From an uncultured Verrucomicrobiae bacterium (GTDB lineage Bacteria > Verrucomicrobiota > Verrucomicrobiia > Chthoniobacterales > Xiphinematobacteraceae): a DNA stretch of 64,000 nt. Made by a program: the position numbers and the translations under genes. Position 1 is the first letter of the stretch; the number at the start of each line of letters is the position of its first letter. The notes under the pieces are model-generated. The model saw only the letters and a list, made by a program, of their open reading frames with translations, did not search any database and was not told the origin of the DNA. Below, in pieces: positions 21,370-26,667 of this stretch. The stretch is from positions 192,001 through 256,000 of the forward strand of contig CAVPNI010000003.1 of NCBI GenBank assembly GCA_963706715.1, read 5' to 3'.

Positions 21370-21490
21370 ATCGAGTAGGAACCCTCATCACTGAGGGCTC
21401 CTCTCACAGAACCGTACTTGTGCTGTTCACATACGGCTCTTCGGAAACACGGGTTATGACCCCCATGGTTGGTATTACAACCTCGACTAT

Positions 21491-22948
21491 TCAGAATGCC
21501 CATACGTATTGCATTGGCTTCTGAGCGGCCATGCGCGCAGGATGTTCCCTATACCGTTGTAGCAATGACTTGAGCCCGCGTGCATCCCAAAGGGAATTCT
21601 TCAGTACTCTGTCAACTGCTGTTGTGTGACTCAGCGCCCACCAGGACTTTCGTCCCGAGTAAATGCTGCGCCACGCGGTTTTGGGATTGATCCCGAGCCC
21701 AATCAGTTTACGAACGATGGTTCGTTTGCATTTGTATTGCTTGAGTTCCATTGCTCGCAGTCGCCTGCGAATGTGGGCGTCAAGTCCTTGCAGCGTCTTC
21801 TCGACTTGTTCTGTACAGATGCCAAAGAAGCCTGTCCATCCGATCACGTAGGCATTGATTTTGTTGATGCACGATTTTAAGGTGCCTCCCCAATTTCTCG
21901 GTGTCAGTTCTCGGATTTTGTTGTTTATGCGTTCTTTTGTTCGCTTTGACAACCTCACTTCTACGTTGCCCTCTAAGGGTTCACGTCGCAGGCTACAGCC
22001 CAGGAAGTGACGCTCTTGTGGCTGTGCCACGGCACTTTTGCTGAGGTTCACTTTGAGACGCAAGCGCCTTTCTATGAAGTTGCTCACGCTAGCCATGACA
22101 CGCTGCCCAGCTCGTTCGCTTCTGACGTAGATGTTACCGTCATCGGCATAACGTACGAAGCGGTGGCCTCTTGCTTGCAGCTCCCAATCGAGTTCATCAA
22201 GCACGATGTTGCTGAGCAATGGGCTGAGGGGACCACCTTGCGGAACCCCCTCGTCGTTGCTCACCACTACGCCATCTGGCATTACAATTCGCGCTTTGAG
22301 CATTTGTCCAATCAGGTGCAGTAGTCTTTTGTCTTTTACTCGCTGCGCGAGTTTGGACATCAGTCTTTGATGGTTTACTCGGTTGAAGAAGTTCTCCAGG
22401 TCGATGTCTACCACCCATTCGCGTCCCTCTTGTATATACTCTTGTGCTTGTCGTATTGCTGTGTGGCAGCTTCGTTGGGGTCGAAATCCGTGACTGTTAG
22501 GGTGGAAGGTCGGCTCGTATTCTGGTTCCAGAACCTGTCGTACTGCTTCTTGGACCACCCGGTCTATCACGTTGGGTATGCCTAGACCCCTTTGTCCTCC
22601 TCCTGTTTTAGGTATCCACACGCGCCGAATTTCTCCAGGTCGGTAGTTTCCTTCTATCAGGGCTTGGCTCAATTTCGGTATTAGCTCGTTGAGGTGCTTG
22701 CGCACTTGTTCTATGCTTTGCCGATCTGGTCCAGGCGCTCCTTTGTTGCTCGCTACTGTTTCAAACGCCCCCTTTAATCTTCGTTCTACTTCTTCCATGG
22801 TCGCTGTCGTTGCTTTCTCTGGCTTGAGTTTTGGCATTGGCGGCGCGCACGCTCGAGCCGAGCTTCGGTGCTCCGCCCTTGCGCCGTCGCTGGGAGTTTG
22901 CACCCCCTCTTCGGCTGTTCCAAATTTCAGTTCAAGTTGCATTGACAT
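21491..22948 (-). CDS. ltrA: Group II intron RT/maturase, no endonuclease domain
   Basis: NKGAPG, LGIPNVIDRVVQ, GVPQGGPLSPLLSN, GHRFVRYADDGNIYVRS. The true start may be downstream (MEEVERR). Confidence 0.93.
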   Translation of the reverse strand: MSMQLELKFGTAEEGVQTPSDGARAEHRSSARACAPPMPKLKPEKATTATMEEVERRLKGAFETVASNKGAPGPDRQSIEQVRKHLNELIPKLSQALIEGNYRPGEIRRVWIPKTGGGQRGLGIPNVIDRVVQEAVRQVLEPEYEPTFHPNSHGFRPQRSCHTAIRQAQEYIQEGREWVVDIDLENFFNRVNHQRLMSKLAQRVKDKRLLHLIGQMLKARIVMPDGVVVSNDEGVPQGGPLSPLLSNIVLDELDWELQARGHRFVRYADDGNIYVRSERAGQRVMASVSNFIERRLRLKVNLSKSAVAQPQERHFLGCSLRREPLEGNVEVRLSKRTKERINNKIRELTPRNWGGTLKSCINKINAYVIGWTGFFGICTEQVEKTLQGLDAHIRRRLRAMELKQYKCKRTIVRKLIGLGINPKTAWRSIYSGRKSWWALSHTTAVDRVLKNSLWDARGLKSLLQRYREHPARMAAQKPMQYVWAF

Positions 22949-23017
22949 TCGTTCGACCGCAACCGCCTTCGCTCCCCCAGTTTGCTTTCGCCGCTGGGTT
23001 GGGACTAGCTTTCGCTA

Positions 23018-24167: not shown

Positions 24168-24594
24168 TAGCCTTCTTGCTACTATGCAGTTGTCTGACTT
24201 CTGTTGGGCCTTTGGCCTTTCGTTCTTTCGTCCTACGGGTTTGCGCCAGGCTTTGGCCTGGCGCGGCCCAACAGATCTCTCTGAGTAAGAATTAACAAAC
24301 TTCGTACTCTTGTCGTCGCCACTACACATGCAGTCCCCAACAGATTTTGGATTTCGCCACCGCCGGCTGGCTCGTCCACTGCATGCGCCTTACGGCGCTT
24401 CACTTTCGTTCGACTATCGTACGCACCTATAGCTTCTACCGTACATCCCCTCACGGGCCTTCCAGCGTTTGCTTCCCTCTGGTTGGGCTGTGGTTCTCCA
24501 CTGCAATGCACTTGCCTCTTCGGTGTTAGGTTCCCTCTGTCAGGGCCCTAGGTTTGGATTTTCACCTCCTGTTTGTTATTCATGCCAGACACAC

Positions 24595-26100
24595 CGGAGC
24601 ACCGAAGCTCGGCTCGAGCGTGCGCGCCGCCAATGCCAAAACTCAAGCCAGAGAAAGCAACGACAGCGACCATGGAAGAAGTAGAACGAAGATTAAAGGG
24701 GGCGTTTGAAACAGTAGCGAGCAACAAAGGAGCGCCTGGACCAGATCGGCAAAGCATAGAACAAGTGCGCAAGCACCTCAACGAGCTAATACCGAAATTG
24801 AGCCAAGCCCTGATAGAAGGAAACTACCGACCTGGAGAAATTCGGCGCGTGTGGATACCTAAAACAGGAGGAGGACAAAGGGGTCTAGGCATACCCAACG
24901 TGATAGACCGGGTGGTCCAAGAAGCAGTACGACAGGTTCTGGAACCAGAATACGAGCCGACCTTCCACCCTAACAGTCACGGATTTCGACCCCAACGAAG
25001 CTGCCACACAGCAATACGACAAGCACAAGAGTATATACAAGAGGGACGCGAATGGGTGGTAGACATCGACCTGGAGAACTTCTTCAACCGAGTAAACCAT
25101 CAAAGACTGATGTCCAAACTCGCGCAGCGAGTAAAAGACAAAAGACTACTGCACCTGATTGGACAAATGCTCAAAGCGCGAATTGTAATGCCAGATGGCG
25201 TAGTGGTGAGCAACGACGAGGGGGTTCCGCAAGGTGGTCCCCTCAGCCCATTGCTCAGCAACATCGTGCTTGATGAACTCGATTGGGAGCTGCAAGCAAG
25301 AGGCCACCGCTTCGTACGTTATGCCGATGACGGTAACATCTACGTCAGAAGCGAACGAGCTGGGCAGCGTGTCATGGCTAGCGTGAGCAACTTCATAGAA
25401 AGGCGCTTGCGTCTCAAAGTGAACCTCAGCAAAAGTGCCGTGGCACAGCCACAAGAGCGTCACTTCCTGGGCTGTAGCCTGCGACGTGAACCCTTAGAGG
25501 GCAACGTAGAAGTGAGGTTGTCAAAGCGAACAAAAGAACGCATAAACAACAAAATCCGAGAACTGACACCGAGAAATTGGGGAGGCACCTTAAAATCGTG
25601 CATCAACAAAATCAATGCCTACGTGATCGGATGGACAGGCTTCTTTGGCATCTGTACAGAACAAGTCGAGAAGACGCTGCAAGGACTTGACGCCCACATT
25701 CGCAGGCGACTGCGAGCAATGGAACTCAAGCAATACAAATGCAAACGAACCATCGTTCGTAAACTGATTGGGCTCGGGATCAATCCCAAAACCGCGTGGC
25801 GCAGCATTTACTCGGGACGAAAGTCCTGGTGGGCGCTGAGTCACACAACAGCAGTTGACAGAGTACTGAAGAATTCCCTTTGGGATGCACGCGGGCTCAA
25901 GTCATTGCTACAACGGTATAGGGAACATCCTGCGCGCATGGCCGCTCAGAAGCCAATGCAATACGTATGGGCATTCTGAATAGTCGAGGTTGTAATACCA
26001 ACCATGGGGGTCATAACCCGTGTTTCCGAAGAGCCGTATGTGAACAGCACAAGTACGGTTCTGTGAGAGGAGCCCTCAGTGATGAGGGTTCCTACTCGAT
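24595..26100 (+). mobile_element. Group II intron B, 3' part (1506 bp), plus strand
   Basis: Begins mid-intron at CGGAGCACCG and ends with DV/DVI ...CCTACTCGAT. Complements 26101-26667 exactly (sum 2073 bp). Confidence 0.93.
24672..25979 (+). CDS. ltrA: Group II intron RT/maturase (protein matches 21491-22948 from EHRSS onward)
   Basis: All RT motifs intact. Start placed at MEEVERR; the upstream MLFMPDTP is a junction artefact. Confidence 0.8.
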   Translation: MEEVERRLKGAFETVASNKGAPGPDRQSIEQVRKHLNELIPKLSQALIEGNYRPGEIRRVWIPKTGGGQRGLGIPNVIDRVVQEAVRQVLEPEYEPTFHPNSHGFRPQRSCHTAIRQAQEYIQEGREWVVDIDLENFFNRVNHQRLMSKLAQRVKDKRLLHLIGQMLKARIVMPDGVVVSNDEGVPQGGPLSPLLSNIVLDELDWELQARGHRFVRYADDGNIYVRSERAGQRVMASVSNFIERRLRLKVNLSKSAVAQPQERHFLGCSLRREPLEGNVEVRLSKRTKERINNKIRELTPRNWGGTLKSCINKINAYVIGWTGFFGICTEQVEKTLQGLDAHIRRRLRAMELKQYKCKRTIVRKLIGLGINPKTAWRSIYSGRKSWWALSHTTAVDRVLKNSLWDARGLKSLLQRYREHPARMAAQKPMQYVWAF

Positions 26101-26667
26101 CCCTTGCGCCGTCGCTGGGAGTTTGCACCCCCTCTTCGGCTGTTCCAAATTTCAGTTCAAGTTGCATTGACATTCGTTCGACCGCAACCGCCTTCGCTCC
26201 CCCAGTTTGCTTTCGCCGCTGGGTTGGGACTAGCTTTCGCTAGCCTTCTTGCTACTATGCAGTTGTCTGACTTCTGTTGGGCCTTTGGCCTTTCGTTCTT
26301 TCGTCCTACGGGTTTGCGCCAGGCTTTGGCCTGGCGCGGCCCAACAGATCTCTCTGGGTAAGAATTAACAAACTTCGTACTCTTGTCGTCGCCACTACAC
26401 ATGCAGTCCCCAACAGATTTTGGATTTCGCCACCGCCGGCTGGCTCGTCCACTGCATGCGCCTTACGGCGCTTCACTTTCGTTCGACTATCGTACGCACC
26501 TATAGCTTCTACCGTACATCCCCTCACGGGCCTTCCAGCGTTTGCTTCCCTCTGGTTGGGCTGTGGTTCTCCACTGCAATGCACTTGCCTCTTCGGTGTT
26601 AGGTTCCCTCTGTCAGGGCCCTAGGTTTGGATTTTCACCTCCTGTTTGTTATTCATGCCAGACACAC
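26101..26667 (-). mobile_element. Group II intron B, 5' part (567 bp)
   Basis: GTGTG start at 26667; ends at ...GCGCAAGGG, the base before CGGAGC in intact copies. Confidence 0.93.

Follow-up and report, generated by a model that had tools for sequence, protein, structure and literature searches.

Organization of the intron array

The stretch of DNA analysed here, referred to below as the window, comprises 64,000 nucleotides of contig CAVPNI010000003.1 (assembly GCA_963706715.1) from an uncultured Verrucomicrobiae bacterium of the Xiphinematobacteraceae, and contains an array built from several copies of a single group II intron, intron B, one of which almost certainly inserted in antisense orientation into another. 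Positions are those of the window unless a contig of the assembly (C1 to C4) is named. Read along the minus strand, the array opens with half of a miniature inverted-repeat transposable element (MITE) of about 260 bp (28741-28865), which is the 5′ exon and provides a hairpin and the intron-binding site 1 (IBS1) GCCG; its native partner half (TTCCCACGG...) is now found behind another intron copy on contig C2. Next comes copy Z (26668-28740, minus strand), a chimeric, full-length IIC-like intron of 2073 nt that stands in tandem with copy X, at the 5′ junction of the latter. Its exon-binding site 1 (EBS1), assigned by covariation with IBS1 in 11 relatives, is the CGGC at intron nt 230-233 (28508-28511, minus strand), with equivalent loops in the array at 26435-26438 and 24362-24365. 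Copy Z encodes an intact reverse transcriptase (RT)/maturase of 485 amino acids (26789-28246, minus strand), with RVT_1 and GIIM domains, the N-terminal sequence MQLELKF and no match to an endonuclease family in Pfam.

Copy X, the host copy, is represented by its 5′ part (nt 1-567; 26101-26667, minus strand), in which the RT open reading frame (ORF) is broken in codon 25. Beside it lies intron nt 568-2073 in reversed orientation (24595-26100, plus strand), where the ORF lacks its first 25 codons. This piece, which ends CTCGAT/CCCTTG, is one arm of a 1506-bp inverted repeat, whose other arm, again intron nt 568-2073, occupies 21370-22875 (minus strand) and together with 22876-22948 restores a complete 485-amino acid RT ORF (21491-22948). 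The arms enclose a probably flipped middle segment of 1719 bp (22876-24594, minus strand), composed of copy Y nt 1-428, an IS630 element and copy Y nt 425-567. The IS630 (23019-24166, minus strand; 361-amino acid transposase at 23028-24113), one of seven full copies in the genome, lies between duplicated CTAG motifs; its insertion adds 1152 bp to copy Y, at the CTAG duplicated after intron nt 428, and splits a GAAA hairpin in putative intron domain III. The array closes with the left 182 bp of an ISL3 element (21188-21369, plus strand), its 3′ exon, and the two outer flanks, MITE half and ISL3 piece, are non-cognate to each other.

Reconstruction of a probable antisense self-insertion

An earlier note on this DNA had described one intron copy as split into 26101-26667 and 24595-26100, and both comparison of the window with itself and direct reading show that the split is exact: when the two pieces are joined, they exhibit no differences from the reference copy C1:668250-670322. 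The junctions GCTCCG/GTGTG (24595/24594) and CTCGAT/CCCTTG (26100/26101) were likewise confirmed as exact intron ends, and 21370-22875 and 24595-26100 form a perfect 1506-bp inverted repeat. When 22876-24594 is flipped in silico, the outer intron becomes identical to the reference, and a complete antisense copy interrupts it at nt 567|568; this inner copy starts with GTGTGTCT, ends with TACTCGAT and, IS630 set aside, differs from the reference by a single nucleotide polymorphism. Both junctions break the host copy at one bond, in codon 25 of the RT ORF, and meet exact intron termini there, an agreement that we infer would arise by chance in about 1 in 2073 cases or fewer. The antisense insertion of the intron into its own copy is strongly supported by this exact un-flipped reconstruction and by a site that fits the target rule of the intron. 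An inversion mediated by IS630 was rejected, because the junctions sit at intron termini and not at the ends of the insertion sequence (IS).

The intron family

The genome (3.04 Mb in 4 contigs) holds nine uninterrupted full-length copies of intron B, copy Z included, plus two in the array and several fragments. Seven of the nine, as well as both rebuilt array copies, lie within 0-1 bases of the reference, one is a variant (92%), and copy Z combines both types as a chimera: its 83 differences from the reference all fall within nt 1343-2058, mostly as in the variant copy C1:811560-813636, while nt 1-1342 are of the main type. The intron protein matches only RVT_1 and GIIM in Pfam, has a YADD motif and carries an N-terminal extension of about 45 amino acids with a QLxLxF motif. 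Its best match in the PDB is the GsI-IIC RT (6ar1, E 2e-116 over residues 58-468); other solved relatives are 7uim (E 2.5e-84) and, far weaker, LtrA (E 7.6e-40). Domain V looks short but reads GAGCCG, an AGC triad, the typical class C triad being CGC. Upstream of position -3 the 5′ exons share no evident sequence by eye, which bears on whether an EBS2-IBS2 pairing exists. Since the hairpins have no U-tail, domain V has the AGC triad and the clade was assigned by best match rather than from a tree, the intron is filed only as IIC-like, and it may instead belong to the g6, U1 or U2 groups, neighbours of class C (PMC8919778).

Other pieces of the family were observed as well. ORF-deleted variants in which the 5′ region is joined to the 3′ end, possibly non-autonomous, occur at C1:153612-154187, in loci L028 and L092 and in record 29 of sequencing run X5. 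An isolated 79-bp intron 3′ end (domains V-VI; C3:129165-129243, locus L034), situated roughly 500 bp downstream from a full copy, is a possible 5′-truncated insertion, and locus L016 (4130-5151) has an exact 512-bp direct duplication of the 3′ part of a related intron, giving two domain V regions.

Target rule and the self site

All ten 5′ exons considered, those of the nine full copies and that of the self site, end in YYG, a trinucleotide pattern with a genomic frequency of 0.067. EBS1 is a loop of 4 nt that covaries with IBS1, the three first positions being paired in 11/11 relatives and all four in six of them; these relatives are what remains of 17 rows with a recognisable 5′ end after removal of two L015 duplicates and of four with different or truncated RNA. 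Compared with random YYG sites, the hairpins of the nine loci fall at percentiles 0.000-0.46, eight of them below 0.19. The hairpins lie in MITEs, IS elements, one coding gene and the intron itself; none corresponds to an intrinsic terminator or an attC site, and no T-run separates hairpin and intron at the target sites examined. Eight of nine intron loci are on the G-rich strand (p=0.04), against 29/60 IS copies, although local skews are small. The rule comprises an IBS1 of 3-4 nt (YYG), usually after a DNA hairpin, and such a site exists on the antisense strand of the intron's own ORF.

That site (24595-24630, minus strand), now the 5′ exon of copy Y, consists of a hairpin of -7.0 kcal/mol followed by the IBS1 TCCG, which at 567|568 on the antisense strand pairs in three of four positions with EBS1 CGGC. 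Measured against 3000 YYG sites drawn at random from the genome, its hairpin ranks in the top 1.3% (0.013); of the 193 antisense YYG sites in the intron, it is one of the best 3. About 5000 genomic sites are equally good. By its sequence, the self site is thus an ordinary target under a loose rule. The chance of at least one antisense self hit is roughly 4% for 12 random insertions and 13% if eight of them are restricted to repeated DNA, so that no special mechanism needs to be invoked. In the related locus L013 the equivalent antisense site would, by eye, mismatch the EBS1 of that intron, and the self target does not look conserved.

Loss of cognate exons across the genome

Because most target sites of the intron lie in repeats, empty target copies reveal which flanks belong together. 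By this measure seven of the nine intron loci have non-cognate exons, namely copy Z of the array, C2:18063, C2:258348-260420, C2:353162-355234, C3:129745-131817, C1:668250 and C1:811560, and cognate flanks are kept only at copies C3b and C3c. The native continuation of the copy Z 5′ flank is the sequence now behind copy C2b, the 5′ flank of C2b continues natively in the sequence behind C2a, and that of C2c in the sequence behind C3a. The two halves of an aldehyde dehydrogenase gene are found in the 5′ flank of C2a (Pfam positions 197-461) and in the 3′ flank of C2c (positions 1-194), 333 kb apart (loci L029 and L030). Copy C1a has a unique 5′ flank joined to half of a MITE, and the flanks of C1b, an ambiguous case, come from two points of an IS21-like element that are separated by 2.3 kb. 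For the 5′ flanks of C1a and C3a and for the remainder of the ISL3 copy of the array, no partner flank lies beside any other intron copy, and the ISL3 remainder, sought by its matching target duplication, was also not found in the assembly; flanks without a partner favour real events accompanied by loss.

IS elements of the same genome provide a comparison. Target duplications match in 16/17 copies of a 1122-bp family, 11/15 of a 1384-bp family and 19/28 of ISL3 (1488 bp; one mismatch permitted for 8-mers), 46/60 in total, whereas the match rate expected from random pairing is 0.024 in ISL3 and 0.10 in the 1122-bp family. Flanks are intact in 2/9 introns (Fisher p=0.0025 against 46/60; 2/8 and p=0.006 without C1b; p=0.046 against ISL3 alone), in a comparison where events are non-independent, introns are the longest repeats, and a single genome and nine loci are involved. 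The exon-inferred order can be converted into the present one by three inversions between oppositely oriented copies, with one 81.5-kb segment omitted and the starts of C2 and C3 assumed to be joined; a mis-resolved repeat graph could equally produce that conversion. Judging from the seven non-cognate loci, the split aldehyde dehydrogenase gene and the chimeric copy Z, crossovers between copies appear to be common in this genome. The segment C3:131818-213369 was considered as an integrated plasmid and rejected, since it carries two tRNAs and ORFs that resemble, and that we take to be, core genes.

A candidate clamp-binding motif at the RT N-terminus

The RT of intron B starts with MSMQLELKF, the motif codons lying at 22922-22948 and 28220-28246 on the minus strand. 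A pattern search, in which misses were not counted, found a QLxLxF-type motif at a constant distance from YADD in 22 loci outside this genome, several of them redundant; loci with the motif at the N-terminus are L013, L014, L017-L021, L035, L037, L048-L054, L056, L057 and L059. Structural modelling of RT residues 1-32 with the genome's own DnaN gave a score of 0.71, versus 0.00 for the best of 3 controls, a mark reached by 51/78 solved complexes and 2/108 mismatched pairs. At least 66% of contacts are shared between the model runs, with a partner pLDDT of about 50, and RT residues 1-10 come to lie next to DnaN residues 172-177, 242-247 and 360-367, which we take to be the usual clamp pocket. 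The pass may reflect likeness, clamp-peptide structures being among those already solved, and QLxLxF is regarded here as a candidate beta-clamp-binding motif conserved across the RT clade. The RT of RmInt1, another intron without endonuclease, is reported to bind DnaN at the replication fork by way of a different motif, the internal QMxxxxLxxLFL in RT2, its first 20 residues showing no binding (PMC6698660). The present RT is likewise endonuclease-less and predicted to dock on DnaN, yet its motif is at the extreme N-terminus and the docking is a model prediction. The dnaN gene itself (C4:305601-306332), with an adjacent dnaA-like ORF, lies on a contig whose GC skew is uniform; the skew minimum is far away, at C1:596 kb.

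Neighbourhood of the array

On the plus strand at 19558-21187 lies an unrelated group II intron, intron A, truncated by the ISL3 element; its 5′ boundary is approximate, being the start of an Rfam match, and its RT is 31% identical to that of intron B. The region 19558-21369 and the array together present four levels of nesting, with ISL3 in intron A, intron B in ISL3, and intron B plus IS630 in intron B. Further left, an island at 5123-18837 carries genes for an integrase, Toprim, MuF-C, DUF5131, a D12 methyltransferase, HTH-IrrE and PIN proteins. An inverted ISL3 pair (1788-3649 and 14979-16466) has the 8-mer ATTTTAAA in common on swapped sides, which suggests an inversion of the 11.3 kb at 3650-14978, the remaining two flanks being mismatched. 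On the other side of the array, a basic ORF of 34 amino acids (29159-29263, minus strand) points into it; its match to COX24_C is weak (E 6e-4) and falls short of the curated cut-off.

Relation to known introns and recurrence

Intron B resembles group IIC introns such as GsI-IIC of Geobacillus stearothermophilus and B.h.I1 in having an RT and maturase without endonuclease, a short EBS1-IBS1 pairing after a hairpin and a strand bias, features described for that class in the accessible text of PMC4424553, PMC8643678, PMC12584367 and PMC8919778. It differs from them in its targets, which are hairpins in MITEs, IS elements, the aldehyde dehydrogenase gene and its own antisense strand, in place of U-tailed terminators or attC sites, as well as in the AGC triad of domain V and the N-terminal extension with QLxLxF.

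Insertion of a group II intron into itself has a precedent in the hypermobile cox1i1149g2 of lycophyte mitochondria, where PMC7049729 describes the outcome as a twintron in which splicing of the outer intron is retained; its text nowhere uses the words antisense, opposite or inverted. Both cases share the self-insertion, whereas the inner copy of the array is antisense, bacterial and probably followed by inversion. Introns homing into other introns within non-coding regions, the arrays being remodelled by homologous recombination between copies, have been reported for the nests of Methanosarcina acetivorans, TeI of Thermosynechococcus and T.e.I7/I8 of Trichodesmium (PMC4424553, PMC4649490 and PMC3073962, in the parts available), and bacterial and archaeal twintrons may be spliced sequentially or be balanced by deletions (from the same portions of PMC4424553 and PMC4649490). 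Unlike these known twintrons, the array intron is antisense, and therefore inverted repeats were made and sequential splicing is impossible. The earlier note had placed the locus beside twintrons, a label ill-suited to it: in the un-flipped reconstruction the copies are nested by insertion, and the inner intron is not on the same strand as the outer one. Chromosomal inversions by crossover of dispersed identical copies are known for IS elements and, in Wolbachia, for group II introns (cited in bioRxiv 10.1101/2023.10.25.563763); in the present genome the rate per copy can be read from mismatched exons and target duplications, and the intron exceeds three IS families in this respect.

A full-text literature search, with supplements outside its scope and a precedent possible there, yielded no antisense self-insertion of a group II intron; the same-orientation event is already published (PMC7049729). 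The unusualness suggested by the earlier note is less marked than it seemed, given the rough chance of about 4-13% for a self hit in a genome of this kind. When the DNA of 60 relatives was searched, pieces turned up in two, both of the same genus, with no nested copy, and no opposite-strand RT pieces were seen in 92 loci outside this genome (424,569 bases, partly redundant and mostly on short contigs), a search of low power. Among 814 plasmid records the best 40 matches were all below 60% identity. Inverted repeats of 76-84% identity were noted in L019/L094, L042, L059, L074 and L075, and in a relative with four copies (L017-L020) shared flanks hide the intron boundaries.

Origin of the array

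The best overall explanation is probably an antisense reverse-splicing event into a sister copy, followed by a likely RecA-type flip of the middle. Copy Y would almost certainly have inserted at the antisense-strand site inside copy X; IS630 would have entered copy Y, and copy Z the retained 5′ junction of X in tandem, either before or after the flip. A RecA-type crossover between the 1506-bp inverted 3′ parts would probably have produced the present order, with at least one further crossover with a distant copy swapping the outer flank. The product would be a non-adaptive relic, X being split, the Y ribozyme interrupted by IS630 and no host gene involved. Either orientation leaves one complete RT ORF besides that of copy Z, and neither switches a host gene. 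The structure is probably accidental, the work of a promiscuous and recombination-prone IIC-like intron.

Regarding the flip of the 1.7-kb middle, which the earlier note had proposed as well, we consider it probably real, on evidence that is indirect (an intact RecA in the genome, flank swaps elsewhere and the IS controls) while no reads cover the locus. Several observations weigh against our reading. The orientation is given by the assembly alone, because no sequencing run contains the locus: no RNA run was listed as sharing its words, the best of five DNA runs has a share of 0.16, and the four that were examined gave short contigs, none bridging a junction. The arms are 100% identical, so that the crossover point cannot be placed, and the longer the repeat, the more often its cognate flanks are lost (1/17 at 1122 bp, 4/15 at 1384, 9/28 at 1488 and 7/9 at 2073), a trend that mis-joining would also give, just as a wrong path through the repeat graph would also permute flanks. 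As for the insertion, one of the nine genomic sites has a hairpin of only median strength, the ISL3 site inferred for the outer 3′ exon has GCCA, not YYG, at its end, and an antisense self-insertion opposes the preference of the element for the G-rich strand. It could be proposed that the self-insertion is real and that the flipped order, perhaps with some exon swaps, is a choice of the assembler through identical repeats; four of the swapped loci fit one consistent rearranged path, as a mis-resolved graph would permit. This seems unlikely to us, given that the assembly usually resolves repeats of 1.1-1.5 kb, as the intact IS duplications show even across the 1488-bp element, which would imply long reads, and that repeats of 5-6 kb sit within contigs, whose ends, where they fall in repeats at all, lie in repeats of 3.3-4.2 kb or in tandem families. 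Moreover, the nine mismatched ISL3 flanks are non-reciprocal except for one low-complexity pair, and the several partnerless intron flanks would be unexpected from simple mis-joining. GC skew, tried as a test of inversion against mis-join, was uninformative because both orders keep polarity, and a joint of 'opposite strands' at 25735/28073 in run X5 was rejected as a self junction, since it stems from a relative of 541 bp, deleted within its ORF, that was matched to two copies.

A different proposal makes insertion and flip one event. The cDNA of the intron, or a break made by the ribonucleoprotein, would be resolved through strand invasion of a homologous copy, and many new insertions would therefore finish in a crossover with a copy already present; in a self-insertion, the closest such homologue is the host copy itself. 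The intron would then actively drive genome inversions. The excess loss of cognate flanks over IS elements fits this proposal, as do the apparent youth of the main intron copies, no older by sequence than ISL3 (0-1 differences per 2073 nt, against a median of 3), and the renewed attack on filled sites seen in the tandem copy Z. However, the introns are the longest repeat class and length alone could account for the excess, many crossovers between introns preserve polarity owing to the strand bias and are hence tolerated, the end product is the same as that of plain recombination, and the data come from dependent events at nine loci of one genome, which leads us to regard the proposal as improbable. 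Nor does the locus appear to be maintained for a function. A minus-strand read-through from hisG (29333-30217) and the COX24-like ORF, both pointing into the array, would be self-complementary over 1506 nt in either orientation, and the structure might be kept because such a transcript, antisense to the intron ORF and to domains V-VI and complementary to every copy, would silence the family through RNase III, an enzyme present in the genome. This idea is very improbable: promoter-like sites are at chance level (5 found, against 7.7 +/- 3.4 in shuffles), intact identical copies persist, and the 92 loci from other genomes, mostly short contigs and partly redundant, show no opposite-strand RT pieces. 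The potentially invertible segment envisaged by the earlier note finds no host exon or gene to act on. No site-specific invertase was seen in the array, whose scanned long ORFs are RTs and the IS630 transposase (integrases elsewhere in the window were outside this test), and its inverted repeats are 1506-bp intron halves, not the short recombination sites of phase-variable elements. The locus is neither a splicing twintron nor a recombinase switch.

Implications

The locus shows that an intron which targets hairpins can strike the antisense strand of its own sequence, with a pair of inverted repeats and a potentially self-complementary RNA as the result instead of a splicable twintron. Exon identity provides a per-copy readout of rearrangement, by which the intron lost its cognate flanks much more often than IS elements of the same genome, and the active driving of bacterial inversions by group II introns becomes testable. 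The clade-wide N-terminal clamp-type motif, as predicted by modelling, would give a simple, mutable starting point for asking how introns without an endonuclease arrive at replication forks. It is conceivable, though we hold it doubtful, that this lineage docks on the beta-clamp via QLxLxF, inserts at fork-exposed hairpins including those of its own antisense strand and often finishes by crossover with an existing copy. If so, retrotransposition itself would invert chromosome segments, and the self-antisense flip, together with the seven swaps among nine loci, would be its footprints.

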